This document shows, in pieces, positions 8,681 through 41,224 of a stretch of DNA of 64,000 nucleotides. The DNA lies in contig JANPJS010000034.1 of NCBI GenBank assembly GCA_031425655.1, positions 1 to 64,000 of the forward strand, written 5' to 3'. The notes under the pieces were generated by a model. That model made no database searches and was not told the DNA's origin. It was given only the letters and a program-made list of their open reading frames with translations. Source of the stretch: Abditibacteriaceae bacterium (lineage in GTDB: Bacteria; Armatimonadota; Abditibacteriia; Abditibacteriales; Abditibacteriaceae). A program made the position numbers and the translations under genes. The stretch's first letter is position 1. Each line of letters begins with the position of its first letter.

Positions 8681-8815
8681 AATCGGTTGACACAGAAGCA
8701 TTACTTTGTATCTTCTCTGCAAAAATGTTGGCGCTGCGCGATAATAAAGGCTTCGTGAAACCTTTACGCATTCTCGTGACCGGCGGCGGCAGCGCCGGCC
8801 ACATCAGCCCGGCGT
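8681..8815 (+). pseudogene. Duplicated murG upstream region and first ~20 codons (truncated)
   Basis: 131/135 identical to 12074-12208. Confidence 0.92.
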
Positions 8816-9005
8816 CGCGCGAAGCTGCGGTCTTCGCCGCGCAGTGATGCCTTTGCCTTCGGTCAGCGTGTAAAACGTGTTGGCGGACAGATTTTTCAGC
8901 GCCTCGCGTGTGCCGCTCGGCCATGCGACGGTCAGTTCGTCAATCTTCATGGCGCTTCCCAAGCCAAAATAAACGCGATGGTCACTGGATGTAAAGATAC
9001 TCGGT
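8804..9005 (-). pseudogene. 3' remnant of a third CRTAC1/ASPIC-UnbV gene
   Basis: SSDHRVYFGLG...VAWPSG...NLSAN..YTLTEG matches the C-termini of the two intact paralogues; rest of the gene absent. Confidence 0.8.
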
Positions 9006-9139
9006 TGCTGTTGTGCCGATGGGGTGCAGGGAGATCCAAGGTTTGGCATTTTGGATTTATTTGTGAAAAAGCTGCCAATTCGCGCTCTGGGCGAACGACA
9101 CTAACCAGAGCAAGGCAGACAATGTCGCGTTTTTGCTGT

Positions 9140-11053
9140 TTACGGTTTATGTAACTGGCGTTGAGTTTCTATACCCTTGCCTTCCCGGATGGTAAGAGTC
9201 TGATTGGCGGGTAGGTTCTTCAAATGCGTCATGAGTCCAGAAGGCCAATGAATGATGAGTTGTGACACCGTTTTTGCATTTCCCAAACCCAGCGTCAGCG
9301 GCAGTTCGCTTTGTGACAAATAACTGGAGCCGCTTTTTACGCGGCGGCGCACAACCGTTTTTCCAAAAGTGACTTTGACCTCAGCACCAATAGCACTTCG
9401 GTTGCTTTTGCTGCCCTTCAGCGTGAGTCTCAAAAAATTGTTTTTATTGCCGCCATCGTTGCGCAACAGCATAGGCGCGGCGTTGAGCGTGGTCATCAGC
9501 ACATCCAAGTCGCCATCTAAGTCAATGTCGGCACAGGCTAAGCCGCGCCCCACGACCTCAGGTTGAGTGGCGCTGGTGCCGAATCCTATATCCTGAAACG
9601 GCTGACCCGGCCCGCGATTCCACAAGAGTAAAGGGCGCTCTTTATAAGTGAGAAAGGTGTCGCCGGTTGATGGGTTGTTTTCTATGTTGTCCTGCACATG
9701 GCCATTAGCCGTGAAAATATCGGGACGACCCTCATTATCTATGTCCACGAAAACGCAGCCGAATGTTGTGAAATAATCGCTGGGTTGAGTAATGCCCCAG
9801 TTTTTGGCTTTGTCTTCATAAAGCGTCGCTCCGGTGATTGGGTCAGAGCCTATCACTTGATAAAGCCCCAAATATTCGCGTGAAAAATTGCCGATAAGGA
9901 TGCTTTCATGGCCCGATTGATCGAAGTCCGCCGTGTCAATTCCCATACCCGCGCGCACTTTCCCTATGGGGTCGTAAACAACGCCCGATTGGGCGCCTTT
10001 CTCGGAAAAAGTGCCGTTGCGCTGATTCAGAAACAGAAAATTCGGCATTAGGTCATTAGCCACCAGCAAGTCAGGCCAGCCGTCTCGGTTTGAATCGCAC
10101 ACGGCGATGCCTAATCCATGTCCGGTTAAAGCCGTGGATTTCCCATTTTTCACAGTAGGCAATGTTGCAGAGATACCGGCTTTCTGTGAAACGTCGGCGA
10201 AGCGTCCCTGACCCAGATTTCGGTAGAGAAGGTTAGTTGCCGCCTCGTAAGAATTGGGGCCGTCATATACTTTGCCCAAGTCGGAAGTGGTGAACTGGAT
10301 TTCGCTTTCAGGCTTCCATTTCAAGTAGCGACAGACAAAAAGGTCGAGCCTGCCATCTTTATCGTAGTCAACCCATGCGGCGCTGCTGGTCCAGCCATTC
10401 CCTCGCACGCCCGCCGAAGTCGCTACTTCGCGGAAGACGGGCTGCTGCCCAGATTTGGATTCGTTATGAAACAAGTAGGCTCGTCCGAGCGAAGTGACAA
10501 ATAGATCAACACGCCCATCATTGTCGTAATCGCCTGCGGCACCGCCAAAGCCATACATTTCAACGGCTAAGCCGCTGTTATGCGTCACATCGCGGAAAGT
10601 GCCGTCGCGGTTGTTATGATAAAGAGCGCCCGTCGTGCGGCGGGCCGGCTTATTTGGCGGAAGATCGAAATTAAACTTTTCTTTATGGATTTTGCCCGGC
10701 CCATTTTTGTATTGCGCGATTTCCTGTTCCGTCCAATTCCGCGCATTGGCAAAGAAAATATCTTGGTAACCATCGTTATCGTAATCCAAGAAGACAGCGC
10801 CGCTGCCCAAGTTTTCAGGAATCCATTTCGCGCCAAAAGCCCCATTGTTGTGGACGAAGTTCAAGCCGCTCGTTTGAGTAACATCGAGAAATTTCACTGG
10901 CCCCGGCGGCACAAAAACCGGAGGGCTGCGCGTAGGTATGGGACGCGGCTCCAAAGCCAACTGGCGATCCTGCCACGAAAGAATCGTAAAAACGATTCCC
11001 GTAGCTATTCCGACAAGTCCGAGAAATTTTAAAAGGTTTTTGTAACGTGACAA
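9140..11053 (-). CDS. CRTAC1-family FG-GAP / ASPIC-UnbV protein
   Basis: DYDNDG repeats, SGSSYLSQSELPLTLGLG, WPSG; N-terminal TM segment; TTG 11053 preferred because 11092 lies inside a terminator stem. Confidence 0.88.
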   Translation of the reverse strand: MSRYKNLLKFLGLVGIATGIVFTILSWQDRQLALEPRPIPTRSPPVFVPPGPVKFLDVTQTSGLNFVHNNGAFGAKWIPENLGSGAVFLDYDNDGYQDIFFANARNWTEQEIAQYKNGPGKIHKEKFNFDLPPNKPARRTTGALYHNNRDGTFRDVTHNSGLAVEMYGFGGAAGDYDNDGRVDLFVTSLGRAYLFHNESKSGQQPVFREVATSAGVRGNGWTSSAAWVDYDKDGRLDLFVCRYLKWKPESEIQFTTSDLGKVYDGPNSYEAATNLLYRNLGQGRFADVSQKAGISATLPTVKNGKSTALTGHGLGIAVCDSNRDGWPDLLVANDLMPNFLFLNQRNGTFSEKGAQSGVVYDPIGKVRAGMGIDTADFDQSGHESILIGNFSREYLGLYQVIGSDPITGATLYEDKAKNWGITQPSDYFTTFGCVFVDIDNEGRPDIFTANGHVQDNIENNPSTGDTFLTYKERPLLLWNRGPGQPFQDIGFGTSATQPEVVGRGLACADIDLDGDLDVLMTTLNAAPMLLRNDGGNKNNFLRLTLKGSKSNRSAIGAEVKVTFGKTVVRRRVKSGSSYLSQSELPLTLGLGNAKTVSQLIIHWPSGLMTHLKNLPANQTLTIREGKGIETQRQLHKP

Positions 11054-11078
11054 TGTGATTTTGCTTTCTTCCAATAAC

Positions 11079-11113
11079 AAAAGAGCAGGCAAGTAAAACT
11101 TGCCTGCTCTTTT
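11079..11113. terminator. Intrinsic terminator-like hairpin
   Basis: aaaagagcaggcaagt / acttgcctgctctttt. Confidence 0.7.
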
Positions 11114-11155
11114 GCTTTTACCGTGAACTGCGCTGTTTTTAGGCGGTGTCAGGAG

Positions 11156-11947
11156 TTAGTTATACTTTTTGTCAACCGCGTCCATGCAATCCGTCAGGTT
11201 GGTTTCGGGCAAGTCGCAGTTGATGCGGTTGGCGCCATCGAAGGCGGCGCCACAGGCATTGCCATTGGCCTTGCCCCACTGGTTGAAGGGGCCGGCTGTT
11301 ACCGAAGCGCGCTGCGATTTGACGTGACCGTCAATGTAAAGCAGGTTCATCTGACCCAGATGCCCGGCCCATACGCGGTTTACCGCAGTGCCAGCATTCC
11401 ATTCGGGCTTGTGGAAGGTTCGGTCCTTATCGGTGTATTCGAGGACGATTATCTTCTGGGAAGGCTTTTGCACGTCGGCAATGCTCATCGACACAACATA
11501 GTCGCCGATTAGATTCTGGTTGTTGACGTAGGACGTGTTAATGGCCGGCGTATCGGGCGTCGCGTTGTCCGAGAGGACATTTTTCGACGGATTGGAAGGG
11601 CAGACAAACAACTGTGCACTCTTTATATACGGGTGGAGTTTTTGCCTCCACGATTTACGCGTTTCAAGTTCCGCAGGCGTGGTGCCATTGTTACGCTCTT
11701 CTCCATTCCACTGCGAGCCACCTCGCGCCGGGAACGATTCGTCGTAATCCTGCGTGTATTGGGCGAAGCCAAGACCGATTTGCTTCAGGTTGTTGGCGCA
11801 AGACGATTTGCGCGCGTTTTCGCGCGCTCGTGCGAAAACGGGGAAGAGAATGGCAGCGAGCAATGCGATAATCGCTATAACGACCAAGAGTTCAATCAGG
11901 GTAAAGGCTTTGCGCGTGCTTCCCTGCGTGCGACGGATGCTAATCAT
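11156..11947 (-). CDS. DUF1559 / prepilin-type N-methylation protein (copy 2)
   Basis: Near-identical N-terminus to 7793..8551; [15 protein letters not shown]. Confidence 0.92.
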
Positions 11948-12147
11948 GAATTTGTCCTGTGCTTCGTGGCGTTTTCGCCGACGGCTGAAATAGCCTGCGG
12001 CGGCCTAAATAACTGTCTAAGTATGAGTATGGTTAATAATACAAAGTTTCAAACGCGAGGCACCATAATTTTAAATCGGTTGATACAGAGGCATTACTTT
12101 GTATCTTCTCTGCAAAAATGTTGGCGCTGCGCGATAATAAAGGCTTC

Positions 12148-13335
12148 GTGAAACCTTTACGCATTCTCGTGACGGGCGGCGGCAGCGCCGGACACATCAG
12201 CCCGGCGTTGGCCATCATTCAGACACTTCAGGAAATTTCCGAAACACCGCCGCAGTTTCTTTATTTAGGCGGTCGGCACGGCTTGGAAGAAGAGCAGGCG
12301 AAGCGCGCCGGACTGGCTTTCGTCGGCGTGGAAACCGGGAAGCTGCGCCGCTATTTTAGCTGGCAGAATTTCACTGACCTGGCGCGAGTTCCCGTTGGCG
12401 TGTGGCAATCGCTGCGCGCGGTGCGCCGCTTTCGGCCCGATGTCGTGGTGTCAACGGGCGGCTATGTCAGCGTGCCGCCGGTCGTGGCGGCGCGTTTGTT
12501 GGGCATTCCTATTCTGATTCACGAGCAAACCGTGCAAGTCGGGCTGGCCAATCGCATTGCGGCGCGCTGCGCGACGAAAATCGCACTCAGTTGGGAAAGC
12601 GCAATGGCGGATCTAAGTCCTGCGCTGCAAAGCAAAGCCTTTGTGGCTGGGAATCCAATTCGCTCGGCGGTATTTGGCGGCTCGCGCGAAGACGCGGCGC
12701 GGATTTTCAACTTCGATGCGCGCGATGCCCATTTGCCGGCGCTTTACATTACCGGCGGCAGTCAGGGCGCACGAGTTATCAATCGCGCCGTCGAAGCGGC
12801 GCTGCCCGAACTGTTGAAAATGTGCCGCGTGATTCATCAGTGCGGCCAGCAGCCGGACGGGCAGGAGCAGGATTTCGAGCGGCTCGAAGCGGCAGCAAAG
12901 GCTTTGTCGCCCGAATTAGCGCGCCGTTATCGCTGCGAACGCTTCATTCGTGAAGAAATCAATCACGTTTTCGCGTGGGCCGATTTGGTTCTCAGCCGCG
13001 CCGGAGCGGGCACGGTTTCGGAATTATGCGCGCTTGGCAAACCTGCGCTTTATGTTCCCCTCGTGCCGACCGGCGGCGACGAGCAAACGCGCAACGCGCA
13101 AATGTGCGAAGCCATCGGCGCCGCGAAAATCATCCGCCAAAGCGAACTAAGCGCCGAAAAATTGCTTCAAGAAGTGCCGCTGCTGTTGAATAACGGCCCC
13201 CAATTAGCGAAGATGAGCGCCGCCGCGCTGACTTTAGCCAAACCCAACGCGGCGCACGTGTTGGCGCAGAATATTTTAGAACTGGCCTCTCGCAAAGACG
13301 CAAAGTCGCAAAGAAGCCCGCCAACCGCAAAGTGA
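12148..13335 (+). CDS. murG: Lipid II N-acetylglucosamine transferase MurG
   Basis: TGGGSAGHISPA, GGYVSVP, HEQ, GNPIR, GGSQGA and RAGAGT motifs; GTG start at 12148. Confidence 0.93.
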   Translation: MKPLRILVTGGGSAGHISPALAIIQTLQEISETPPQFLYLGGRHGLEEEQAKRAGLAFVGVETGKLRRYFSWQNFTDLARVPVGVWQSLRAVRRFRPDVVVSTGGYVSVPPVVAARLLGIPILIHEQTVQVGLANRIAARCATKIALSWESAMADLSPALQSKAFVAGNPIRSAVFGGSREDAARIFNFDARDAHLPALYITGGSQGARVINRAVEAALPELLKMCRVIHQCGQQPDGQEQDFERLEAAAKALSPELARRYRCERFIREEINHVFAWADLVLSRAGAGTVSELCALGKPALYVPLVPTGGDEQTRNAQMCEAIGAAKIIRQSELSAEKLLQEVPLLLNNGPQLAKMSAAALTLAKPNAAHVLAQNILELASRKDAKSQRSPPTAK

Positions 13336-13399
13336 TTTTCTGCCGACAATCGGTCAGGTTTTCTCAGCGGCTTCTTTGCGACTTTGCGTCTTTGCGAGA
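13288..13399. repeat. Tandem (CGCAAAGA)-type inverted-repeat element
   Basis: 31-bp perfect IR tctcgcaaagacgcaaagtcgcaaagaagcc / ggcttctttgcgactttgcgtctttgcgaga; left arm lies inside the murG 3' end. Confidence 0.9.
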
Positions 13400-13415
13400 G
13401 ATTAAAAAGGAAACT

Positions 13416-14534: not shown

Positions 14535-14539
14535 ACACC

Positions 14540-18717: not shown

Positions 18718-18867
18718 ATAAATCTCCGGGTTGGAATGGGAATCGGGTTGCCAATTGAAGCCCGCCGCAATTCTGCGACCGGCGTCGCACCGACGCGCGA
18801 GCAAAATCGCGGTTGCCGATGCGTTGTGCGGCTTCGCGCTCACGTCGCAGGTCGCCTTAATACCTAA

Positions 18868-19028
18868 CCCAAGTTGCTACCTATTAGCCCGGCGATTGAA
18901 ATCGCGGCCAACTAAGCAGCGAAGTCCGCCTTCGCGGACTAAAAACAAAGATTTTAGTCGCCGTAGGGCGACTTTGCCGCTTGGTTGCCGCGAATTTATT
19001 CGCCAGACTTGATAGGTAGCAACTTGGG
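18868..19028. mobile_element. MITE with 17-bp TIR CCCAAGTTGCTACCTAT, 11-bp target-site duplication and a REP-like interior
   Basis: Direct repeat ttaatacctaa at 18857-18867 and 19029-19039; interior homologous to 6002-6126. Confidence 0.88.
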
Positions 19029-19035
19029 TTAATAC

Positions 19036-23196: not shown

Positions 23197-24678
23197 ATGA
23201 CTACTGCGGAGAAATTAGAAGCGCGCAAACGGCAGGGAGAACTTGGTCAGTTCTTCACGCCGGCACCGCTTGCTGATTTCATGGCGTCGCTGTTTGGCCC
23301 GTTGCCCGCTGCGGTGCGGCTTTTGGATGCAGGAGCCGGGGCCAGCGCATTGACCAGAGCGTTCGTCGAGAGGTTGAGTCGGCAGAAAGACGGCGTCGTC
23401 ACCGTCGAAGCCACGCTTTACGAGATTGACCCGCTGCTTTTGGACGATCTCACGGCCACGATGCGCGATTGCGAGCGCATTTGCGACCGTGCCGGAATCG
23501 GCTTCACCTACGCCATCCATTCGGCCAACTTCATCGAGGCAACGTCGGCAAGTCTGGCGGGAAATCTGTTCGCTGCGCCGCCGCCCGCTTTCGATGCCGC
23601 CATCGTGAATCCGCCTTATCGCAAGATCAACTCCGCCTCCGCCGAACGGCGCGCTTTGCGCTCGGCGGGAGTCGAAACGAGCAATCTTTACACGGGATTC
23701 ATTGCCCTTATTCAGAGGTTGCTCGTTCCGGGCGGGCAACTCGTCGGCATTACGCCGCGCAGTTTTTGCAACGGTCGCTACTTTCGTCCCTTCCGCGAGG
23801 ATTTTCTGAGCAATCTCGAACTTCGCAGGCTGCACGTTTTCGAGTCGCGCTCAACCGCGTTCCGCAGCGACGACGTTTTGCAGGAAAACGTCATTTTTCA
23901 CGTTGCGAAGGGCAAAAATCAGCCACCCGAAGTGGTTGTTTCCAGCAGCAGCGGCGAAGGCGACGGCGCGGTGATCGAGACGGTCGTGCCCTTTGCCGAC
24001 GTGGTTCATCGGCATGAAAAGGAAAAATTCATCCATATTCCGTCGGCCTCAATGCAAACTGCGGCAAGGCAAACGATGAGCGGCTTGAGTTCGACTCTTG
24101 AATCTTTGGGGGTTTCGGTTTCGACCGGACGTGTCGTTGATTTTCGCCTGAAAAACGCTCTGCGTCAGGCGCCGGAGGGGGGAACGGCGCCTCTCGTCTA
24201 TCCCTGCCACTTCAACGGCGGCACGATTCACTGGCCCAAACTCGATGGCCGCAAGCCCAATGCCATTTTAGACACGCCGGAGACGCGGCCCTGGTTGGTG
24301 CCGTCCGGCGTTTATTTGCTGACCAAACGCTTTACCTCCAAAGAAGAGCGCCGCCGTCTGGTGGCCTGCCTCTTCGACCGGGACGACGTGCAGGCGGAAT
24401 GGCTTGGTTTCGAGAACCATTTGAACTACTTTCACGAGAGCGGGCATGGACTCGAACGCAGCCTCGCACTGGGACTCTTTGCATTTTTGAACTCAACTCT
24501 GGTTGACCAGTATTTTCGGCGTTTCAGTGGCAACACGCAGGTCAACGCCACCGACCTTCGCAGCCTGCCATACCCCGACCGCGCTTGCCTGCAGGCGATG
24601 GGAAATGCCATGATGGCGATTGACTTTACGCAAGGCGAGATTGACGCTCTGGTGGCGAAGCACATCCATACCAAGTGA
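23197..24678 (+). CDS. N6-adenine DNA methyltransferase, BsuBI/PstI-like
   Basis: GQFFTP, LLDAGAG, NPPY, TGRVVDFR and GNTQVNATDL motifs. Confidence 0.9.
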   Translation: MTTAEKLEARKRQGELGQFFTPAPLADFMASLFGPLPAAVRLLDAGAGASALTRAFVERLSRQKDGVVTVEATLYEIDPLLLDDLTATMRDCERICDRAGIGFTYAIHSANFIEATSASLAGNLFAAPPPAFDAAIVNPPYRKINSASAERRALRSAGVETSNLYTGFIALIQRLLVPGGQLVGITPRSFCNGRYFRPFREDFLSNLELRRLHVFESRSTAFRSDDVLQENVIFHVAKGKNQPPEVVVSSSSGEGDGAVIETVVPFADVVHRHEKEKFIHIPSASMQTAARQTMSGLSSTLESLGVSVSTGRVVDFRLKNALRQAPEGGTAPLVYPCHFNGGTIHWPKLDGRKPNAILDTPETRPWLVPSGVYLLTKRFTSKEERRRLVACLFDRDDVQAEWLGFENHLNYFHESGHGLERSLALGLFAFLNSTLVDQYFRRFSGNTQVNATDLRSLPYPDRACLQAMGNAMMAIDFTQGEIDALVAKHIHTK

Positions 24679-25699: not shown

Positions 25700-28600
25700 A
25701 TGAAGAAACTGATTGCCGTTTTTGCCCTGATGTTAGCCGTCGCCCAATCAAGTCGTGCCGAACTGTCGCCCGCGAATCTGCGCTGCGAATACAAAGTCAA
25801 TCCTGTGGGCGTTGGCGATGCGCAGCCGCGTTTGAGCTGGATTGTCGAGTCGAAACAGCGCGCCGAAAAGCAGACGGCGTATCAAATTTTGGCGGCGTCC
25901 AGCCTCGAAAATCTCAAGGCCAAACGCGGCGATTTGTGGGACAGCGGCCAGATTAAATCGAACGCTACCGCGCAAATCGTATACGGCGGCAAGCCGCTCG
26001 GCAGCGCGCAAACCGCGTGGTGGCAGGTGCGCTCGTGGGACAAAAACGGCAAGTCGTCGCCGTTTAGCGCGCCCGCGCAGTGGACGATGGCGCTGCTCGA
26101 CCCGGCGACGGAGTGGAAAGCGTCGTGGATCAACCTCGAAGCGTTGCCGGATCAGCCGAAAAGCGACGGCGCCAGTCCCAAAGGCGCCAACTGGATTTGG
26201 TTTCCCGAAGACGATCCCGCCGTCAGGGCGCCGGTCGCCACGCGTTATTTTCGCCTCGTGGTCAACGTGCCCGCCGATATCGGCATCGCCGCCGCGAAGC
26301 TGTCGCTGACCGCCGATGATCGCTGGACGGTGTGGTTCAACGGCAAGGAACTCGGCAAAAGCGGCACCGATGAATTCGCATGGCGCGACTTTAAAACCTT
26401 CGACGTGGCGAAGCTGGTGAAAACCGGGCCGAACCTCATCGCTATCGAAGCGACCAACGCGACGGCCAGCCCCGCCGGTTTGCTGGCGAAGCTCACCATC
26501 GAATCGGCGCAGTGGGGCAAGCATGAATTCGTCAGCGACGCGACGTGGAAAAGCGCGCAAACCGCGCCCGACGGCTGGCAAAACGTCGCTGGCGACGCCG
26601 GTTGGCAGTCGGCCAAAGTGCTGGCGGCGTATGGCGGCGGGCCGTGGATGGACACGGTCGGCGCCGGTGGCGCTAAAACCGGCGCGCCGCCGCCCAGCGC
26701 GTTTCTGCGCCGCACTTTTCGGGTGACAAAGCCGCTGCGCCGCGCCACTGCCTACGCGACTGCGCTCGGACTTTACGAACTGCACGTCAATGGAGCGCGC
26801 GTCGGCGACGACGTGTTCACGCCCGGTTGGACGGATTACAAAAAGCGCGTTTATTATCAAACTTACGACGTGACGCCGCTGCTGAAACAAGGCGCCAATG
26901 CAGTCGGCGCGATTTTAGGCGACGGCTGGGCGACAGGCCACGACGGCAACGGCGGGCGCGACCGCTACGGCTTGCATCGCCCGCATTTTAGCGGGCAAAT
27001 CGTGCTGGATTACGCCGACGGCACGCGCGAAGTCGTCGGTTCCGACACCAATTGGAAAGCCGCTTATGGCCCGATTGTTGAGCAAGACTTGCTCGATGGC
27101 GAGTTCTACGACGCCACACAGGAACAAGCAGGCTGGGACACGCCGCAATTCGATGACGCCGCGTGGCAAAAGCCCGACATGATCGCCGCGCCGCAGATTA
27201 AAATCGAAGCGTATCCGGGCGTTCCGGTGCGCCGCCAACTTGAACTCAAGCCGAAAAAAATGACTCAGCCGAAGCCGGGCACTTACGTTTTCGATTTGGG
27301 ACAGAACATGGTCGGCTGGGCGCGGTTGAACAATATCACGGCGCCGCGCGGCACCAAAATTCGCCTTCGCTTTGCCGAAATGCTGAACGCAGACGGCACG
27401 ATTTACACCACCAATTTGCGCGGCGCGCGTTGCATTGACGAATACACTTGTCGCGGCGGCGCGCCTGAAACATGGGAGCCGCGCTTTACGTTTCACGGCT
27501 TCCGCTACGTTGAACTCACCGGCGTTCCAACCGCCACAGCCGACAGCGTGACCGGAATCGTGGTGCACTCCCAAATGCCGATGACAGGCGAATTTGCCTG
27601 CTCGAATCCCCTTGTCAACCAACTGCAAAGCAATATTCAATGGGGTCAGCGCGGCAATTTTCTCGAAGTGCCGACCGACTGCCCGCAACGCGACGAGCGC
27701 CTCGGCTGGATGGGTGACGCGCAGATTTTCGTGAAAACCTCAACTTACAACGCCGATGTCGCCGGCTTTTTCAGTAAATGGATGGTAGATGTCGAAGACG
27801 GAATGCGCGGCGACGCTTTCCCCGATGTGGCGCCCGACATTTGCTGCGGCGCGGGAACTCCGGCCTGGGCCGATGCCGGCGTGATCGTGCCGTGGACGAT
27901 TTATCAGGTTTACGGCGATACGCGCATTCTCGAAAAGCACTACGGCGCGATGGCGCGCTACATCGAATGGATTCGCAAAAGCAACCCGGATTTGATCTGG
28001 AAAAATCGCGGCTCGGATTACGGCGACTGGCTTTCCATCGCCGCCGACACGCCCAAAGACGTGCTGGGAACCGCTTATTTCGCGTATTCAACCAGCCTTT
28101 TAGCCAAAATCGCGCACGCTCTCGGCAAAAACGACGACGCGCAAAAATACGAGGCGCTTTTCAACGGCATTAAAGCCGCTTTCAACAAGAATTTCGTGAC
28201 CGCCGATGGACGCATCAAAGGCGACACGCAAACCGATTACGTCTTGGCGTTGCGCTTCAATTTGCTGCCCGACGACAAGCGCGCTCAGGCCGCGCAACAT
28301 CTGGTGGACGACATCGCCAAAAAGGGCAATCACCTTTCGACCGGCTTCGTTGGCGTCGGCTATTTGAATCCGGTTCTCACGCAAACCGGTCACGGCGATG
28401 TGGCCTATCAACTGCTGTTGCAGGACACTTTTCCCTCGTGGGGCTACTCGATTCGCCAAGGCGCAACCACGATTTGGGAGCGTTGGGACGGCTATCGCGC
28501 CGACAAAGGCTTTCAAGACCCCGGCATGAATTCGTTCAACCATTATTCACTCGGCTCGGTCGGGCAGTGGATGTTTGAAAGCGTGGCCGGAATTGACGCC

Positions 28601-28921
28601 GACCCAAACCAGCCGGCCTTTTCGCACGTCATTTTGCGACCGCAGCCGGGCGGCGGCCTGACTTTCGCGCGCGGCGGCTTCGATTCGATACGCGGGCGCA
28701 TCGAAAGCGGCTGGAAAATCGAAAACGGCGTCTTTTCCTACAACGTGACGATTCCCGCCAACGCGACGGCGACGCTGTATTTGCCCGCCGCGCTGACCGC
28801 GAAAATCACCGAAGGCGGCAAAGCAGCGGATAAAGCCGACGGCGTGCAGTTCGTCAAGCACGAAAACGGCTCCGCGATTTACGAACTCGGTTCGGGCAGC
28901 TACGCTTTCGCGGTGCGATGA
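25700..28921 (+). CDS. Secreted GH78-family alpha-L-rhamnosidase
   Basis: Signal peptide; DLGQNMVGW, FTFHGFRY, PTDCPQRDERLGWMGD, GATTIWERW and MNSFNHY motifs. Confidence 0.93.
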   Translation: MKKLIAVFALMLAVAQSSRAELSPANLRCEYKVNPVGVGDAQPRLSWIVESKQRAEKQTAYQILAASSLENLKAKRGDLWDSGQIKSNATAQIVYGGKPLGSAQTAWWQVRSWDKNGKSSPFSAPAQWTMALLDPATEWKASWINLEALPDQPKSDGASPKGANWIWFPEDDPAVRAPVATRYFRLVVNVPADIGIAAAKLSLTADDRWTVWFNGKELGKSGTDEFAWRDFKTFDVAKLVKTGPNLIAIEATNATASPAGLLAKLTIESAQWGKHEFVSDATWKSAQTAPDGWQNVAGDAGWQSAKVLAAYGGGPWMDTVGAGGAKTGAPPPSAFLRRTFRVTKPLRRATAYATALGLYELHVNGARVGDDVFTPGWTDYKKRVYYQTYDVTPLLKQGANAVGAILGDGWATGHDGNGGRDRYGLHRPHFSGQIVLDYADGTREVVGSDTNWKAAYGPIVEQDLLDGEFYDATQEQAGWDTPQFDDAAWQKPDMIAAPQIKIEAYPGVPVRRQLELKPKKMTQPKPGTYVFDLGQNMVGWARLNNITAPRGTKIRLRFAEMLNADGTIYTTNLRGARCIDEYTCRGGAPETWEPRFTFHGFRYVELTGVPTATADSVTGIVVHSQMPMTGEFACSNPLVNQLQSNIQWGQRGNFLEVPTDCPQRDERLGWMGDAQIFVKTSTYNADVAGFFSKWMVDVEDGMRGDAFPDVAPDICCGAGTPAWADAGVIVPWTIYQVYGDTRILEKHYGAMARYIEWIRKSNPDLIWKNRGSDYGDWLSIAADTPKDVLGTAYFAYSTSLLAKIAHALGKNDDAQKYEALFNGIKAAFNKNFVTADGRIKGDTQTDYVLALRFNLLPDDKRAQAAQHLVDDIAKKGNHLSTGFVGVGYLNPVLTQTGHGDVAYQLLLQDTFPSWGYSIRQGATTIWERWDGYRADKGFQDPGMNSFNHYSLGSVGQWMFESVAGIDADPNQPAFSHVILRPQPGGGLTFARGGFDSIRGRIESGWKIENGVFSYNVTIPANATATLYLPAALTAKITEGGKAADKADGVQFVKHENGSAIYELGSGSYAFAVR

Positions 28922-28928
28922 AAGGAAC

Positions 28929-29510
28929 ATGAGTGAACAAGGCGCCTTTGACCTCGCGCACGAGTGGACAGGCGATGCTTTAAGCGAATCGGAATCGGCG
29001 GCGTTTCAAGAGGGCAAAGCCAAAGCTCTGCAAAAGCTGTTGCCTTACGCGCATCCTTCTTCTAACCAAGAGGCGGCATCGGTTGTTTTGGAACTGAATG
29101 GTAGCGAATTCGATTTCCGTGTCGGCGAGAGATTTGAAGTGATGGTGTTGGTGCCTGCGAATCGTGCCGTAGCACACTTGCACACTCATCCGGATGCGGA
29201 GCCGCAGAGCTTGGAAGATTGGCAGGAATTTCTCCCAGTCCATGCCGTTCGCCAAGCGCACGTCATTGCGCCCAACGCGACGTATTCGCTCCATAAACCA
29301 CCGGCATGGGAAAATACGGTGCGTCCGATTCGTCGCAGAGAGATCGCCGTCGCCTATTTTGAGGTTTATCAAGCTGCTCAACTGGACGCGCTGCGGAGAG
29401 GCGAAAACGCGGAGAACTTGGAAGTGGACGAAGCAGCGGCGCGGAACATGGCCGCCCGTTTTGGCATACTTCATTGCGTTGGCATCCGACGAGGAGAGGA
29501 AAGGCCATGA
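28929..29510 (+). CDS. Hypothetical protein with JAB/MPN+-like metal-binding motif
   Basis: AAGGA RBS; QE...HTHPDAEPQSLED (E...HxH-x6-S-x2-D). Confidence 0.6.
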   Translation: MSEQGAFDLAHEWTGDALSESESAAFQEGKAKALQKLLPYAHPSSNQEAASVVLELNGSEFDFRVGERFEVMVLVPANRAVAHLHTHPDAEPQSLEDWQEFLPVHAVRQAHVIAPNATYSLHKPPAWENTVRPIRRREIAVAYFEVYQAAQLDALRRGENAENLEVDEAAARNMAARFGILHCVGIRRGEERP

Positions 29511-29677
29511 AAGAAAAGATCACAAATCTTCGCATGGATACTAAAGCGGGGCAAGAGAAGCAGCACAAAATCAAGAAGGCAGCTTTGGCATCAGCAAAAG
29601 CAAAATTCGCGGCGGAACAGAGAGACGGCGCCCTCCCCGCCACACACACTGCCACGCCGTTGAGAAAAGTCGCCTAA
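29507..29677 (+). CDS. Small basic hypothetical protein (56 aa)
   Basis: ATGA overlap with the upstream gene, GGAGAGGA RBS; ends TPLRKVA. Confidence 0.55.
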   Translation: MKEKITNLRMDTKAGQEKQHKIKKAALASAKAKFAAEQRDGALPATHTATPLRKVA

Positions 29678-29719
29678 GCGCGCATCTATGGTTGAAGCGA
29701 AGCCGGAAGAAGAACAACC

Positions 29720-29929
29720 ATGAGCGAAGAAGTCGTTCCTTACAACTGCGATGGGATGGAAAGCCGCAAGCGGCAGAAGGCGACGCCGCAAGCTATGCGC
29801 GCGCGCATTGACGCGGAAGAGAAGGCCGCCAAAGCCTATTCAACACAGAAAGCCTCATCGAGCCGCGTGAAAATCGAAGCTGGACAAATCGAAACCCCGT
29901 CGCAAAATCCCCATCGCAAGGCCGCATGA
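29720..29929 (+). CDS. Small hypothetical protein (69 aa)
   Basis: Purine-rich RBS; ATGA overlap with a mini-ORF at 29688-29723; ends NPHRKAA. Confidence 0.5.
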   Translation: MSEEVVPYNCDGMESRKRQKATPQAMRARIDAEEKAAKAYSTQKASSSRVKIEAGQIETPSQNPHRKAA

Positions 29930-30039
29930 GTCCATTGAAACGGCGCCTGCCAATCGTCGCAGAGCTGCTCCGCCTGCCGCCCGCCAAAGACAGATAATTT
30001 TGAGCGGGCGTTTTTCATGGTTCACGTTACCGACGCATT

Positions 30040-30279
30040 ATGCTGAAACACCTTCTCGCGCTTTTAATTTCGTTCGTTGTCGCGGCGCCTTCGATTCAAT
30101 CCGAGGCCACATCGAAAGCAGTTGGAAGCTCGAAAATGGTGCCTTTTCCTGCAACGTGACGATTCCCGCCAATACGACGGCGACGCTGCAAAATCCGACG
30201 GCGTGCAATTCGTAAAGCAGGAAAACGGCGCCGCGATTTATGAGCTTGGTTCGGGGACTTATTCGTTCGAGGTGCGATG
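30040..30279 (+). pseudogene. Collapsed remnant of a GH78 rhamnosidase allele or paralogue
   Basis: 30081-30279 aligns with 28670-28920 with a ~50-bp internal deletion; preceded by signal-peptide-like MLKHLLALLISFVVAA from ATG 30040. Confidence 0.85.
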
Positions 30280-30399
30280 CGGTCGTGTTTGGCCGGGGGA
30301 ACCAATGCTGAACCTGAAATCTAAGCTATCCCTCCGCCGGATTTGTTTGAACGATTGCGAGCCGCGTTGCAAAAGAACGTCTGAAAAGTCACCTTGCCA

Positions 30400-30434
30400 A
30401 TGGCCCGCAAAATCATTCAAACCGGCGTGTTGGT
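30400..30434 (+). pseudogene. 5' stub (MARKIIQTGVL) of an FAD-dependent oxidoreductase
   Basis: 31/35 identical to 31153-31187. Confidence 0.7.
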
Positions 30435-31099
30435 CAGTTGATAATCTCGTTCGGCCCGGAATAAGTTATGGGGCCTGGGGGAAAACACGGGAAGAGTTCC
30501 AGGCCAAAGCCGTCGTTCAACACTTCGTCGCTGTAAACATCCGCCATGACCAGTTCCCTGCGGCCAAAATAGTAAATCCACTCGAAATCGTAGCGCACCT
30601 GAATCCAAGGATAAAGTTCCTCATCGTCATCCTCCGAAGGAGGTGGGAGTTCTTTAATTTTGATTGTAAAGGGGCCAACCAGCTTCCAAATAATCGGACG
30701 TTCCGCGTCCGGAGGACTGAATCCTGCCAATTGTTGATACCAACCAGTTCCATCAGGATTGAATTGCCATACGACATCTACTCCGCGCCAGCCGCCCACA
30801 GGCCCCTCTCGAAACTTGATTCGATGACCTTTTATGGAACGCAGGGTGAACCCACTGATGAGCGTTGGAATAAGCTTTTGCAGTTCTGTTGGTGGTAGTT
30901 TGGCCCAAGGAAGCAACGCGCCACATTGGCACTGCTTAAAGTCATGGGGATATGGCTCTCCGCATTGGGCGCAATTGCCGCAAGATGGCTTCACCCAAGG
31001 CAGGATCGCGCCGCATTGGCACAATTTGGATGTGTAGGCGTTTTTCGCGCCGCATACATCGCAATTTCCGCCGATTGGATTCTTTTGCATTGACTCCAT
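30434..31099 (-). CDS. Hypothetical protein with tandem N-terminal zinc-ribbon repeats
   Basis: Two GNCxxCG-x8-CQCGAxLPWxK units; ATG at 31090 is an alternative start. Confidence 0.7.
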   Translation of the reverse strand: MESMQKNPIGGNCDVCGAKNAYTSKLCQCGAILPWVKPSCGNCAQCGEPYPHDFKQCQCGALLPWAKLPPTELQKLIPTLISGFTLRSIKGHRIKFREGPVGGWRGVDVVWQFNPDGTGWYQQLAGFSPPDAERPIIWKLVGPFTIKIKELPPPSEDDDEELYPWIQVRYDFEWIYYFGRRELVMADVYSDEVLNDGFGLELFPCFPPGPITYSGPNEIIN

Positions 31100-31152
31100 T
31101 GGTTGGCGCTTTCGTGTGGCTTAAGTTGTAGTAAAACGGAAATAGAGATTTT

Positions 31153-31212
31153 ATGGCACGAAAAATCATCCAAACCGACGTGTTGGTGTGTGGCGGTGGC
31201 GGCGCTGGGCGC
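31153..31212 (+). pseudogene. 5' stub of an FAD-dependent oxidoreductase
   Basis: MARKIIQTDVLVCGGGGAG is a Rossmann GxGxxG start; homology stops immediately afterwards. Confidence 0.75.
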
Positions 31213-31233
31213 GCGTGCTGGGAAAGGAAATCC

Positions 31234-31610
31234 ATGTTGAAATTGCGTTCCCTTTGTCTGTTGGCCTCGTTGTCCACGCCGCTCTGCGCGCAGGAACTGA
31301 CGATGAAGCAAATCGTGCCGCAAATCTCTGAGGCGCCGCTGAAAAATCCCGGCATGGGCCTCTATCTTGGCGGCACGCTGAACGAAAAAGAGCTTTCGCC
31401 CGATTTATGGCCCACACAAATCATTGACATCGGCTATTTCCGCGACGATTGGGCCAAAATTCAGCCGCATGGCCCCGGAACGGCGGATTTTGACGCGTAT
31501 TTAAGCCGATTTTCGACCTTTGGGTGAACAAACTGCACCGGCAAGTGGCTGACGAACGCGAACACCGACAAATACGACACGACGAAATTGGGCACATGGC
31601 AACGGCTCGA
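31234..31610 (+). pseudogene. Decayed gene for a secreted glycoside-hydrolase-like protein
   Basis: RBS, signal peptide, LKNPGMG...YFRDDWAKIQP; frame shifts near 31502 into KPIFDLWVNKLHRQVA, then breaks up. Confidence 0.6.
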
Positions 31611-31768
31611 AGCCTGAGTCTAAACCACGCCGCAAACCGCGCGTGGCGAGCTGGCCGTCGAAAAAGGCTCGCTCGAATCGCGCCCGCAAATCGCGCTGCG
31701 CTTGGACGAAGTGAAGCTCGAATTGGTCGAATCGCCGTGACGGTTAAACTCAGGGTGAGGTGAACGAA

Positions 31769-32029
31769 ATGGCAGTCGCAACGGTAGAAGAGATTTATGA
31801 GCAGGTGAAGGCTTTGCCGCTGGAAGCTCGATTGCGCCTGGTTGAACGAATCGCGCATGATGTGTCGCGGCAAGTGGGCGAGGAAGAACCGAAGATAAAG
31901 CGCCGTTGGCGCGATATTCGCGGCACAGCAGTCGGATTATTAGACGGCGAGGACGCGCAAGAATGGGTGTCGCGCACGCGGCGCGAAGGCGACGCGCATC
32001 GGGAAAAGCAATGGAAGCGTGAGCCGTGA
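31769..32029 (+). CDS. Putative antitoxin of a PIN-domain toxin-antitoxin pair
   Basis: 86 aa; VKALPLEARLRLVE and W.DIRG...EDAQEWV...R pattern; overlaps the start of the PIN gene. Confidence 0.75.
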   Translation: MAVATVEEIYEQVKALPLEARLRLVERIAHDVSRQVGEEEPKIKRRWRDIRGTAVGLLDGEDAQEWVSRTRREGDAHREKQWKREP

Positions 32030-32483
32030 ACATTGCCGACGCGCTGGCGCCCGGTAGCCGCTTGTTTCTTGATTCGGCTCCCGTCATTTATTACGTTGAA
32101 CGGCATCCCCATTATTTGTCACTGGTGGATGTGTTGTTCGATGCGCTTGACGACGAGACTATTGAAGCAGTAACTTCGCCCGTTACATTGGCGGAGTGCT
32201 TGATTCTTCCGCTGCGGGTTGGCAATACGCTTTGCGGCGAGAATATGTCGCAGTCATTACCAATGGCCCTGGCATCGAATTTTGGCCTCTGAATGATGTT
32301 GAGGCGCAACACGCCGCCGACCTCACAGCGCGCTACAATATCCCGTTGCCTGACGCCTTTCAAATTGCCGTTGCCATCGCGTCCGGCTGCGACGCATTTC
32401 TTACCAACGACCTCACGCTGAAACGAGTGCGGGAAATCACGATTTTGGTGCTGGACGAACTGGAACCGCCAACCTCTACATGA
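32026..32483 (+). pseudogene. VapC-like PIN-domain toxin, frameshifted near 32228
   Basis: FLDSAPVIYYVE...SPVTLAE in one frame; LPDAFQIAVA...FLTND in another. Confidence 0.82.
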
Positions 32484-33970
32484 CCCAACCGCTGATTCAA
32501 ATTGAAAGTCTGAGCAAATTTTATGGCGTGGTGCGGGCGCTCGAAGGCGTCAGCTTCGATATTCGCGCGGGCGAAATTCACGCGCTCGTCGGAGAAAACG
32601 GCGCCGGGAAAAGCACTTTAATCAAGGCGTTGGGCGGCGCGCACGCGCCGAGCGAAGGCCGCGTTTTGGTGAGTGGGCAGCCGCTTTCGTGCGGCGTGAC
32701 GGCTTCGGAAGCGGCGGGCATCGCCACGATTCACCAGGAAATCACGGCGTTTCCGCATCTCAGCGCCGAAGACAACATTTTCGTGGGCCGCGAGCCGCGT
32801 TTGGGCGGAATTTTCATCAATCGCGGCCAAATGCGGCGCGAAACGCGGGCGCTTTTGACACAACTTGGCGAAAATTTCGATTCGGCGCGGCCTGTTGGCG
32901 AACTCAGCGTGGCGCGGCGGCAGATGGTCGGCTTCGCCCGCGCGCTGTCGCAGAAAAGCAAATTGCTGATATTAGATGAGCCAACGGCTTCGCTGTCCGA
33001 GCGCGAATGCGTGGCGTTGTTCAAAGTGATTCGCGCGCTGCAAAGCGACGGCGTGGCGATTCTCTACGTTAGCCACCGTTTGGACGAAATTTTTGCTTTA
33101 GCCAACCGCGTCACGGTTTTTCGCGACGGGCGCCACGTCCAAACCTGCGACATCGGCGAAGTGGACAAAGCCGGTTTAATTCGCTTGATGGTCGGGCGCG
33201 AAGTCGTCGAAGAGCGCGATGAATCGGGGCGCGGCGTGCCGGGCGAAGCGGTTTTGCAGGTCGAAAACTTGTCGCGCGAAGGCGCTTTTCGTGACGTTTC
33301 GTTCCAAGTGCGTGCCGGAGAAATCGTCGGGTTGGCCGGCCTCGTTGGCGCCGGACGCAGCGAAGTGGCGCGGGCGATTTTCGGTGTAGACAAACCGACA
33401 GCGGGCGTCGTGAAAATCAGCGGCGCGATTTTGCCGTCCGGTTCGGTGGGAAAAGCGGTCGCGCGCGGTGTGGCTCTGGTGCCCGAAGACCGCCAGCATC
33501 AGGGGTTGGTTTTGGCGATGACGGTCGGCGAAAACCTTACGCTTTCGGTGCTGGAACGCCTGGCGCGCGGGCCGGGGCGCGACAAAAAAGCCGAGCGCAC
33601 AGAGATTGCGAAATTGATGAAAGACCTGTCGGTGCGCGCCGCCGGGCCGGATATTCCGGCGCAATCGCTGTCGGGCGGAAATCAGCAAAAGTTGGTGGTC
33701 GGTAAGTGGCTGGCTTCGCAGCCGAAAGTTTTGATTTTAGACGAGCCGACGCGCGGCGTGGATGTCGGCGCGCGGGCCGAGGTTTATCGCTTGATTCGTC
33801 AGTTGGCCGGGCAGGGCATGGCGGCGCTGGTGATCTCGTCCGACTTGACCGAAATCCTCGCCTTATGCGACCGCATTTTAGTCATGCGCGAGGGCGTCGT
33901 TTCCGGCGAGCTGCCGCGCGAAGGCGCCACGCAAGAGAAGATTTTAGAATTAGCTTTGCCGGAAAAATAA
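32480..33970 (+). CDS. Sugar ABC transporter ATP-binding protein (CUT2 family)
   Basis: GENGAGKSTL, two NBD halves, LSGGNQQK, DEPTRGVDVG. Confidence 0.95.
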   Translation: MTQPLIQIESLSKFYGVVRALEGVSFDIRAGEIHALVGENGAGKSTLIKALGGAHAPSEGRVLVSGQPLSCGVTASEAAGIATIHQEITAFPHLSAEDNIFVGREPRLGGIFINRGQMRRETRALLTQLGENFDSARPVGELSVARRQMVGFARALSQKSKLLILDEPTASLSERECVALFKVIRALQSDGVAILYVSHRLDEIFALANRVTVFRDGRHVQTCDIGEVDKAGLIRLMVGREVVEERDESGRGVPGEAVLQVENLSREGAFRDVSFQVRAGEIVGLAGLVGAGRSEVARAIFGVDKPTAGVVKISGAILPSGSVGKAVARGVALVPEDRQHQGLVLAMTVGENLTLSVLERLARGPGRDKKAERTEIAKLMKDLSVRAAGPDIPAQSLSGGNQQKLVVGKWLASQPKVLILDEPTRGVDVGARAEVYRLIRQLAGQGMAALVISSDLTEILALCDRILVMREGVVSGELPREGATQEKILELALPEK

Positions 33971-38815: not shown

Positions 38816-38912
38816 GCCGCACCGTCGGGAACCGCATTTGCGCCCGCGTGTCGTTGAATGCGAACTTATTTGGGCAGCTTTCCCGCTGCCCTTTTTGCAT
38901 TTGGAGATTCTC

Positions 38913-40724
38913 ATGGCCCGAAAAAACGACCGCAATCGCGGCGGCGATAACAACGATTTCGACTCCTCCGACGACATCAATTTCAGCAACAGCCCGTTTC
39001 AAGGCTTGCCCGAAACGCATTTGCAATCGTCGGCTCTGCTCGACGAAATTCTGACGAATTATCCGCACCCCGACACGCGGGCGCGGCAGTATTTAATGCT
39101 GTTGCGTCATCAGTTGGCAACCGACGACAATCAACTCGAAGAAGCACGTCAGGCGCTTCAGGAATTCGAGGAGGTTTATAACAAGCTCACGCAACCGGCC
39201 AACCGCATCGGCGTTTACATCGCCAAATTAGATGGCGACAAGCCGAAAAGCAAAAAGCGTAAGCTGCCGTTTCAATCGCAGGAAGCGGCGCCCAAAGAAA
39301 ACCATCTCATTGCGGTTGGCGATCAGGAGTTCATCGTCGGCGCCGATCCGATGCTTGAAGACAGTGACTTCGCCGCCGGCACGCGCGTGACGGTCAACGA
39401 AGCCTACGTTATCGTCGGCGATTTAGGCCCGGCGACCAACGGCCCGGTCGTGAAAATCAGCGAAGTTTTGGACGATGGTCGTCTGCGCGTGGCGATGGAC
39501 TCTCAGGGAATGCAGTCGCGTCTTGTCTATCGCGGCGATTCGTTGAAAGAATTGGATTTAAAAGCCGGCGACGAAGTTCGCATGGAGCCGAATTTCAAAG
39601 TCGCGCTCGAACGCTTCGGGCAAAGCGAAAACAAAGAGTATTTTCTGGACACGGTGCCGGAGCTTCCCTGGGAGAAAATCGGCGGTCAGGAAGAAGCGAT
39701 TGAGCTTATCAAAGACACCATCGAATTGCCGCTGATTTACCCCGAACTGTTCGAGCGTTTCGGCAAAAAGCCGCTTAAAGGAATCCTGCTTTACGGCCCG
39801 CCGGGCTGCGGTAAAACGCTCATCGGTAAAGCGACGGCTTATAATGTCACGCGCGCCTTCAACGACCGCACCGGGCAAGAGCTGAAAGAGTATTTTATGC
39901 TCATCAACGGCCCGCAGATTCTCAATATGTGGCTGGGCGAAACCGAGCGGCAGATTCGGGAAATCTTTCAGGTCGCGCGCGAAAAAGCCAAGTCGGGCCA
40001 CTTGGTTTTCATCTTTATTGACGAAGCCGAAAGCATTTTACGCACGCGCAGCGCCGGGCGCGGCGGCTATATGCAAAACACCATCGTGCCGATGTTTTGC
40101 GCTGAAATGGATGGACTTGTCGCTTTAGAAAACGTTATCGTGATCCTGACCAGCAATCGCCCGGATTACATTGATCCGGCGATTTTGCGCCCCGAACGCA
40201 TTGATCGCAAAGTCAAAATCCGCCGCCCGGACAAAGCCAGCGCACGCCAGATTTTCGATATTTATCTGCGCAAAGACTTGCCGTATTCGCCGGATTTGTT
40301 GAAAGAGTTCGATGGCGATGTCGAAAAAGCGCGGCAGGGCTTGATAGATCACGCGATGGAAAAAGTGTTCCGCAAAGCGCCGGACACCGAATTTGTCGAG
40401 GTTTACACGCGCAGCGGCGGCGTCGAAACGCTGCACTTCAAAGACTTGCTCAGCGGCGCCTTAATCATGAGTTTGGTGGAGCGCGCCAAAGACTTCGCCA
40501 TCAAGCGCAGCATTGACGTGAAGAGTTCCAACGAAGGCATCAGCCGCGACGACATGGCGCGCAGCATCGAAAGCGAGTTCAAGGAAAACGAGATTTTCCC
40601 CAAGACCGATAATCTCGAAGATTGGCTGAAATTGCTCGATTACGAGCCGGAAAACGTGGTGACCATCAAGCCGATTCGTCCCGGCGCGAAGGAAAAATAC
40701 ACCGCGCGCAACGGCGTGATTTAA
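38913..40724 (+). CDS. arc: ARC/Mpa-like proteasome-associated AAA+ ATPase
   Basis: Coiled coil plus LTQPAN; VPELPWEKIGG, YGPPGCGKTLIGKA, GETERQIR, FIDEAE, SNRPDYIDPAILRP, SGALI and EN..P motifs. Confidence 0.8.
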   Translation: MARKNDRNRGGDNNDFDSSDDINFSNSPFQGLPETHLQSSALLDEILTNYPHPDTRARQYLMLLRHQLATDDNQLEEARQALQEFEEVYNKLTQPANRIGVYIAKLDGDKPKSKKRKLPFQSQEAAPKENHLIAVGDQEFIVGADPMLEDSDFAAGTRVTVNEAYVIVGDLGPATNGPVVKISEVLDDGRLRVAMDSQGMQSRLVYRGDSLKELDLKAGDEVRMEPNFKVALERFGQSENKEYFLDTVPELPWEKIGGQEEAIELIKDTIELPLIYPELFERFGKKPLKGILLYGPPGCGKTLIGKATAYNVTRAFNDRTGQELKEYFMLINGPQILNMWLGETERQIREIFQVAREKAKSGHLVFIFIDEAESILRTRSAGRGGYMQNTIVPMFCAEMDGLVALENVIVILTSNRPDYIDPAILRPERIDRKVKIRRPDKASARQIFDIYLRKDLPYSPDLLKEFDGDVEKARQGLIDHAMEKVFRKAPDTEFVEVYTRSGGVETLHFKDLLSGALIMSLVERAKDFAIKRSIDVKSSNEGISRDDMARSIESEFKENEIFPKTDNLEDWLKLLDYEPENVVTIKPIRPGAKEKYTARNGVI

Positions 40725-40725
40725 C

Positions 40726-40769
40726 AACAGAGCGGGCCAACGCATTATGCAGCGGCCCGCTCTGTTTTT
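40726..40769 (+). terminator. Intrinsic terminator
   Basis: aacagagcgggcc...ggcccgctctgtt followed by a T run. Confidence 0.72.
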
Positions 40770-40800
40770 GAAGGGCTATAATCAATAATGGTGATGCCAG

Positions 40801-41154
40801 ATGAAGCAAATTCTTTTCTCACTTTTGCGTTTTGCAAACCTTGCATACATGGGTTTTTCTGACCTTCGGCAATGGGAAAAAATCAGGGCACAGGGTTCGG
40901 CGCGTTTCATTTTTTCGCGCAGTATTGTGATGACCTGTTGGTGGAGCGCGCTTATCGGTTCTTCCTTTTACATTTGGGGAGACCCTATTTCCTTCAGCCC
41001 CAAAGGCATTTTGATTTTATTTGGGTGTTCCTATCCAATGGGTTTGATTTCGGCCTTCGGAGCATGGGGCGATTGTGAAACGTGGTATCTCAAAAAGCGG
41101 AATGAAGAATCCAAGCCTGCCACGGACAAAAACGGCAACTCCGCAAACGCCTGA
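40801..41154 (+). CDS. Small hypothetical membrane protein
   Basis: 117 aa with two hydrophobic helices; lower GC; TATAAT at 40777-40782. Confidence 0.65.
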   Translation: MKQILFSLLRFANLAYMGFSDLRQWEKIRAQGSARFIFSRSIVMTCWWSALIGSSFYIWGDPISFSPKGILILFGCSYPMGLISAFGAWGDCETWYLKKRNEESKPATDKNGNSANA

Positions 41155-41224
41155 CGTGGTGACCATCAAGCCGATTCGTCCCGGCGCGAAGGAAAAATAT
41201 ACCGCGCGCAGCGGCGTGATTTGA
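41154..41224 (+). repeat. Second copy of the last 71 bp of the arc-like gene
   Basis: 68/71 identical to 40654-40724, 500 bp downstream. Confidence 0.95.

Follow-up and report, generated by a model that had tools for sequence, protein, structure and literature searches.

The window analysed here is the first 64 kb (64,000 nucleotides) of contig C34 in the assembly of an Abditibacteriaceae bacterium (G000; 5.98 Mb in 327 contigs, 97% complete). In four places it holds an insert lying between two diverged copies of a gene end. Our analysis shows that this pattern is real and genome-wide, a quantitative extension of a known type of scar. The repeats are likely to be scars of insertion-duplication, by which DNA from related strains or species was added with no integrase at more than 40 loci. 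The pairs have a consistent geometry, an allelic type of divergence between copies and foreign-looking cargo, and they lack an attachment (att) core.

Displaced gene ends across the genome

Genes were called with our own hexamer model (4507 genes; starts are less reliable than stops), and 3626 of them passed into a search for low-copy matches of at least 40 bits, at most 20 kb apart, with the partner outside any other long gene. This search for direct repeats at gene ends, which an earlier sequence-only reading of the window had proposed, found a downstream copy of the 3′ end at 45 of the 3626 genes. Copies of 3′ ends lie downstream on the same strand 52 times, versus 4 times upstream and twice on the other strand; copies of 5′ ends lie upstream 18 times versus 5 times downstream, and never on the other strand. 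Internal gene pieces show no side bias (13 versus 12). Nearby two-copy repeats are direct in 226 cases and inverted in 15, many of them being paralogues or internal repeats.

Later counts rest on 50 of the 55 3′ alignments, at 43 genes, five of which carry arrays; the five alignments set aside are three likely paralogue pairs, the second block of the GH78 pair described below and one long nested case. The doubled stretch has a median length of 71 nt (range 20–217) and a median identity of 91%, only one pair being identical, and the inserts measure 0.2–6.2 kb (median 1.2 kb). In 36 of the 50 pairs the similarity breaks off no more than 7 nt from the stop codon. At 28 of the 50 joints a same-strand open reading frame (ORF) has its stop in the preceding 50 nt, versus 6.8 for random points in the same inserts. 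Anchor genes, by Pfam, include glnA, pyruvate carboxylase, prfA, recG, carB, ahcY, argG, hflX, tgt and uvrC. An array on contig C70 (21226–24205, L093) consists of four stray ends of a GH4 gene, two of them starting at the same base; the GH4 gene of the congener G002 is 88% identical to it, above the usual 77–85%. Stray copies begin with 6 nt of raised GC content (0.68 versus 0.58), to which an alignment-start bias may contribute. The idea that truncated cargo reads on into the stray end was rejected, as the seven frames that cross at the 50 joints include no called gene. Two otherwise unlike genes on C143 have their last 64 nt in common at 89% identity (47219–47282 and 49025–49088), which is possibly cargo fused in frame to a displaced tail. 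That such events form a major route of cassette gain, as the sequence-only reading had it, is borne out by their number but too strong by amount of DNA, the roughly 82 kb between 3′ copies making up 1.4% of the genome.

The divergence between copies is mostly silent. Pooled over 79 alignments (55 3′ and 24 5′), the ratio of nonsynonymous to synonymous differences (pN/pS) is 0.23, with a 95% bootstrap interval of 0.19–0.28, and it is 0.14 in pairs at least 90% identical; differences in the 3′ set number 114, 71 and 280 at the three codon positions. By our own reckoning, a neutrally decaying local duplicate would be expected at about 0.5 or more. Because the differences are mostly silent, the copies are better understood as alleles that evolved under selection, as first proposed, than as decayed local duplicates. 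The original argument from mostly synonymous changes had leaned on a selective list, since the window itself holds 22 silent and 16 replacement changes (14 of the latter in GH78), and it became firm once pooled genome-wide. Some decay is present, with 8 new stops among the 1767 codons. Of 61 sites at which the copies differ, the stray base is found in at least one congener at 26, the working base at 46, third positions matching easily by chance. As far as such comparisons can tell, the stray copies are alleles that have undergone later decay.

The inserts are accessory, in agreement with the first reading. Forty-four of 70 insert ORFs (20 regions plus the window) have no family, some being probably spurious; the others include toxin–antitoxin genes, four methylases, two restriction genes, glycan enzymes and one DDE transposase, but no integrase. 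Called genes between the copies have a third-position GC content (GC3) of 0.585 and none of 58 has a match in the relatives' tiles, whereas the first gene beyond the stray copy has a GC3 of 0.670 with 6 of 40 matched, and the genome stands at 0.672 and 687 of 4181. Genes between the copies are thus foreign-looking and those beyond native-looking. At the C70 array, DNA from beyond the last copy sits 149 nt after the gene in G003 and 305 nt after it in G005. Congeners have single copies at arc, murG and prfA. A shared att core with a cognate integrase, the combination that would speak for site-specific insertion, was found neither in the 43 repeats nor in the 70 insert ORFs: no 8-mer is common to more than 4 of the 43 repeats, and none of the genome's 6 tyrosine recombinases lies inside or within 14 kb of a scar.

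The signature is general at a low rate and dense in this genome. One uniform ORF-based count on tiles up to 20 kb found scars at 43 of 2939 genes in G000. Three congeners, sampled with about 1.3 Mb of tiles, have them at 2 of 779 genes, one of the 2 cases being on a contig chosen for that case; two further genera have 1 in 474 genes, and the surroundings of arc in other phyla 1 in 820. Fisher p values against G000 are 0.003, 0.025 and 0.0004, respectively, to be read with the caution that kin are not independent and arc loci are core-biased. The G000 rate is about sixfold above that of the sampled congeners. Stray glnA ends occur in G001 beside Calx-beta-like genes, at the same site as in G000 (L256, 1059–1190; L264, 395–511). 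In one of these G001 cases the stray end is immediately preceded by another short remnant of that stretch. Metagenome contigs gave 59 glnA loci with 1 kb or more of downstream sequence, of which 5 have a second end on the same strand and none on the other. With one paralogue removed and two identical sequences counted once, 3 distinct cases remain, one with its joint one base behind a stop. The doubled glnA ends, 24–64 nt long, lie on three unrelated metagenome contigs (L266, 6240–6620; L283, 5145–6529; L301, 360–4400).

Four pairs in the window

Self-BLASTN of the window recovers all four repeats at the places where they had first been noticed (Table 1), with E values of 1e-114 (murG), 2e-28 and 3e-19 (GH78), 4.5e-5 (FAD oxidoreductase) and 3e-26 (arc). 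They are 35–250 nt long and are not multi-copy families (median far copy number 0). The earlier observation that no integrase or transposase is visible holds for all 57 window ORFs by Pfam, and two inserted ORFs do have a stop sharing one base with the repeat, at 30434 and 41154. Pfam finds no restriction–modification genes in the four inserts. At murG, GH78 and arc the repeat doubles the end of an intact neighbouring gene, as claimed; the FAD pair does not, because both of its copies are fragments and no full-length gene with this start was found in the assembly.

Table 1 Features at the four doubled gene ends of the window
Locus	Feature	Position	Strand	Evidence
murG	Prepilin-like gene A (N_methyl + DUF1559), next to the displaced murG start	7793..8551	-	Pfam; 44% identical to gene B
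murG	Stray murG copy: upstream DNA and first 20 codons, GTG start at 8755	8681..8815	+	self-BLASTN
murG	3′ fragment of ASPIC/UnbV gene adjoining the murG fragment (novel joint)	8816..9049	-	Pfam, blastx
murG	Insert gene: FG-GAP + ASPIC/UnbV protein	9140..11092	-	Pfam
murG	Insert gene: prepilin-like gene B (N_methyl + DUF1559)	11156..11947	-	Pfam
murG	Working murG (GT28), GTG start 12148, repeat copy 12074-12208	12074..13335	+	Pfam; orthologues in G001-G003
GH78	Intact GH78 rhamnosidase, repeat copy 28670-28920	25700..28921	+	Pfam; self-BLASTN
GH78	Three insert ORFs with no Pfam family: one of 193 aa (28929-29510), two short	28929..29929	+	
GH78	Stray decayed GH78 3′ end	30081..30279	+	self-BLASTN, Pfam, blastx
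FAD	First 5′ fragment of likely FAD oxidoreductase gene, 11 codons	30400..30434	+	self-BLASTN
FAD	Insert gene, 221 aa, full length; stop shares one base with repeat	30434..31099	-	homologue P0001
FAD	Second 5′ fragment of likely FAD gene, about 19 codons, then broken	31153..31209	+	
arc	Intact arc (proteasomal ATPase), repeat copy 40654-40724	38913..40724	+	Pfam; self-BLASTN
arc	Hairpin behind working arc end, similar in congeners G002 and G003	40733..40763	+	
arc	Insert ORF, 117 aa, no family; TGA shares one base with repeat	40801..41154	+	
arc	Stray arc 3′ end, 23 codons including stop	41154..41224	+	self-BLASTN; identical part at twice flanking depth
arc	Terminator-like hairpin, 15 pairs, behind stray arc end	41241..41274	.	

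The murG copies (8681–8815 and 12074–12208) differ at 4 of 135 nt, of which 2 fall within the 20 coding codons and are silent. Similarity extends leftwards to 8342 and 11738 at 80%, an extension due only to the prepilin-like DUF1559 gene on either side, the 5′ part of which is multi-copy (about 34 copies elsewhere). The GH78 pair consists of two blocks at 85% and 83% identity, with 15 silent and 14 replacement codon changes; its second copy is 52 nt shorter and has lost its stop (TGA/TGC). Immediately left of this stray end, positions 30041–30088 resemble the start of a signal-peptide gene, as in a like case on C140 at 41216. This resemblance suggests that the joint cut into the donor's next gene.

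The FAD pair spans 35 nt with 3 silent changes and 1 replacement; its second fragment has a GxGxxG motif, which makes the gene a likely FAD oxidoreductase. The 221-aa insert protein has one homologue, P0001 (226 aa), with 67% identity over the full length. Gene fragments follow one another over 30280–32483: a 3′ end before 30385, both FAD pieces, a broken signal-peptide gene at 31234–31740 and, at 32026–32483, an antitoxin-like ORF and a frameshifted PIN gene.

At arc, the copies differ at 3 of 71 nt and each has its own hairpin behind. No homologue of the 117-aa insert ORF was found among proteins of 60–193 aa. Joints were checked on contigs of four sequencing runs, X1–X4 (no raw or long reads). 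A 6106-nt contig of X1, which is probably the source sample, covers 27685–33790 and with it the GH78 and FAD cases, with 2 differing letters and an even depth of 11.8. In the run contigs the 46 identical nt of the arc repeat stand at depth 17.1, and the DNA before, between and after the copies at 9.0, 8.8 and 8.5; a mixed population, considered in view of the depth dip at the insert, was rejected on the equal depth of both flanks. A 208-nt contig of X2, from another study, crosses the arc joint with 9 differences, at a weak depth of 2.3; the four differences listed for the stray arc end are all silent third-position changes, and at this depth the 49 bases past the stray stop appear not to fit the window. 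Of the four runs only X1 contains the region; X2 has a small share of it, and X3 and X4 have next to none, which is no proof of absence. A search of metagenome contigs for same-species strains with the arc-end pattern gave 0 matches.

Elsewhere in the window, palindromic intergenic repeats of about 100–120 nt occur in both orientations by self-BLASTN (1–96, 5896–6304, 18865–19033, 1586–1692 and 55952–56056). By Pfam, an Eco57I-type methylase and a BsuBI/PstI restriction gene lie at 23197–25666; no flanking repeats were found around this system.

Origin of the scars

Under insertion-duplication, a donor piece made of gene end, terminator and cargo would exchange homologously with the resident gene, and the donor's other end would be joined illegitimately to resident DNA 30–130 nt before the stop, or after the start. 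This could happen directly on the linear molecule, or through a circle closed first and a single crossover; the data are compatible with either route. The gene would remain whole with cargo behind it, its old end and terminator would be displaced outwards, and repeated events would stack arrays. Long identical repeats loop out, so short diverged ones are expected to persist: after looping-out of long repeats and trimming of spare DNA, pairs such as those observed would remain. Homology-facilitated illegitimate recombination (HFIR) during transformation, the mechanism named in the sequence-only reading, is not supported as worded, as in its described form it yields an insertion with a deletion whereas the visible product here is a duplication; if the stray copy were the newcomer, a deletion would be visible only against parent strains.

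Entry of DNA by transformation is possible. ComEC and DprA, the uptake genes that the sequence-only reading had advised looking for, are in G000, but they are not distinctive, being found in 10 and 11 of 14 control genomes. A repair-gene difference as cause of the excess was tried and rejected, with RecJ, MutS and MutL in G000 and all three congeners. RecT and Rad52-like annealing proteins were not found in G000, an assembly 97% complete. ATP-dependent DNA ligase was not found in G000, G002 or G003 and is present in 17 of 25 genomes of the family.

Several observations weigh against an origin by insertion-duplication. With 30–130 nt and some 90% identity, the repeats offer little length for a single crossover, and the circle route needs later trimming. 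The cargo stop lies within 15 nt of the joint in 16 of 50 cases (3.1 expected), a crowding that one step would not by itself account for. Of the 61 differing sites, 31 match a congener in the working copy only, which indicates that divergence is partly later decay. A same-species empty site was not seen; 13 of 15 anchors with an orthologue lack a conserved neighbour on either side, and the ancestral neighbour is present at 1 of 15. At arc and glnA the congener alignment runs 37–50 nt past the working stop and the hairpin of the working copy matches, which would fit equally well if the stray copy were the newcomer. No repair-gene difference accounts for the excess over congeners, and neither Ku nor ATP-dependent ligase was found in the 97% complete genome.

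That opposite polarity corresponds to textbook HFIR, with the donor anchored beyond the insert and its free end, in the last 30–130 nt of its own allele, joined behind resident cargo, so that the stray copy is the incoming piece. It needs no unusual joint, and it would explain the joints just behind cargo stops, the addictive cargo (toxin–antitoxin and restriction genes) as resident cargo that could not be lost, and the congener-like hairpins behind the working arc and glnA ends. We nevertheless consider it unlikely: the genes beyond the stray copy are native-looking, so most events would bring no gene, and C70 has the ancestral neighbour beyond the last copy. We also see little chance that the pairs are remnants of a large tandem duplication of two haplotypes (a merodiploid), trimmed by deletions to cargo and a short gene end. 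Merodiploids formed by transformation have reportedly been described (PMC3784515), deletions are evident in the 52 nt gone from the GH78 copy and the gene fragments at 30280–31760, and the left and right remainders at joints are both short. Yet intermediates are few, with a handful of longer pairs (372–496 nt) among the 3′ matches, and no repeat of the gene beyond is found in the DNA to the left of the joints.

Site-specific insertion, either as islands in gene ends that decayed and lost their integrase or by an integron integrase at secondary sites, is largely refuted and very improbable. The genome does hold an integron integrase (C103, 4922–5521, L346; TIGR02249 over the cut-off), attC-like DNA is cut at one joint (C24, 14051), and AAC stands at 10 of 50 joints versus 6.8 when permuted (p 0.03, for one of four motifs tried). 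However, AAC stands at only 4 of 50 targets, the 43 genes are unrelated and share no core, 1 of 50 pairs is identical, the median insert is 1.2 kb and no insert holds a recombinase. The integron crossover motif (GTT/AAC) was dropped as a joint signal, being weak and absent from targets; the position table shows no motif, and an Rfam/attC model was not run. Local duplication in one lineage with neutral decay of the spare copy could account for the 8 new stops and the decayed GH78 copy, but hardly for a pN/pS of 0.14 in the most similar pairs and 0.23 overall, for single cargo or for the differing DNA behind the two stops; the pooled ratio refutes it, unless imported alleles often replace working ends, and we give it next to no weight. 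A chimeric assembly of two strains, which the division into 327 contigs and the use of contigs in place of raw or long reads might allow, is scarcely credible given the X1 contig across GH78 and FAD, the depth of the doubled arc stretch (17.1 versus 8.5–9.0) and the contig from another study across the arc joint. The worry about artefactual joints, voiced in the sequence-only reading, is thereby countered at the three loci that the contig check covered, GH78, FAD and arc.

Relation to known systems

A genome-wide account of such scars was not found in the literature searched, most subscription papers and supplements being outside it. The pairs have the architecture of insertion with long target duplication, which Nobusato et al. 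2000 reportedly also treated. Furuta, Abe and Kobayashi 2010 (PMC2853133) describe it as an insert of <20 kb between direct repeats of >30 bp with no mobility gene, the repeats often spanning a start or stop site so as to leave the target gene whole. Repeats of >30 bp are typical here too (median 71 nt), inserts are 0.2–6.2 kb without integrase, and some are restriction–modification genes. PMC2853133 has a few restriction–modification loci per species, with 44–47 of 46–47 bases identical in some table rows, in contrast to 43 loci in one genome with 91% median identity, mostly non-restriction cargo, stacked arrays and a measured allelic signature; the restriction–modification cargo by which that paper searched is absent from the four window inserts.

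HFIR has one homologous anchor and one illegitimate joint without integrase, as proposed here, but what it produces is an insertion accompanied by a similarly sized deletion, with 3–10 bp of microhomology (PMC3240628); it does not usually duplicate the anchor end. Amarir-Bouhram et al. 2011 (PMC3240628) found that in E. coli conjugation trimmed, recircularized fragments entering by single crossover accounted for 56 of 60 clones, with part of the homologous gene doubled around the insert as here; those duplications are 109–950 bp and identical, unlike the diverged 71-nt median here. In type VI secretion system (T6SS)/Rhs arrays, new modules are added behind a conserved 5′ part and the older 3′ ends move outwards, for which an HFIR-like mechanism was proposed (Kirchberger et al. 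2017, PMC5361080). Those are toxin–immunity loci in which the gene end is swapped, whereas the housekeeping genes here retain an equivalent end and gain unrelated cargo.

Many hotspots of gene gain lack a mobile element, and first entry beside a core gene is called an open question (Oliveira et al. 2017, PMC5635113). Gain beside core genes through housekeeping recombination is common to both, but the double homologous exchange of hotspots is scarless and cannot create the first insertion, so the scars here would record the first additive step. Gain by transformation is also discussed, without such scars in the sections cited, in PMC12359135 and PMC13344027. Islands driven by an integrase in protein-coding genes have an identical att core and an adjoining cognate integrase, and integron cassette arrays have attC behind each ORF and a GTT/AAC crossover; neither arrangement was seen at the loci here in the searches for a core, a recombinase and a crossover motif.

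New here are the scale, the stacked arrays, a cargo made up mostly of genes other than restriction genes, and a single weak hint that old ends act as homology arms. This hint comes from the X2 contig, with the same joint of cargo stop and arc, a silently different stray end and other DNA behind it, together with the arrays at 5 of 43 genes. A stray end might, tentatively and with the odds against it, be a portable second homology arm, so that the unit of gene end, cargo and stray end could be added behind any allele in relatives. If so, dozens of housekeeping genes would carry an integron-like, polarized cassette system, driven by host recombination and roughly ten times more active in this lineage, and cassette addition by ordinary recombination would spare the DNA lying beyond. 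The scars give a countable, single-genome record of additive gene gain, whose silent-site excess and one-sided geometry can be checked on any assembly, and the several-fold difference in rate between close relatives offers a handle on the responsible genes or ecology.

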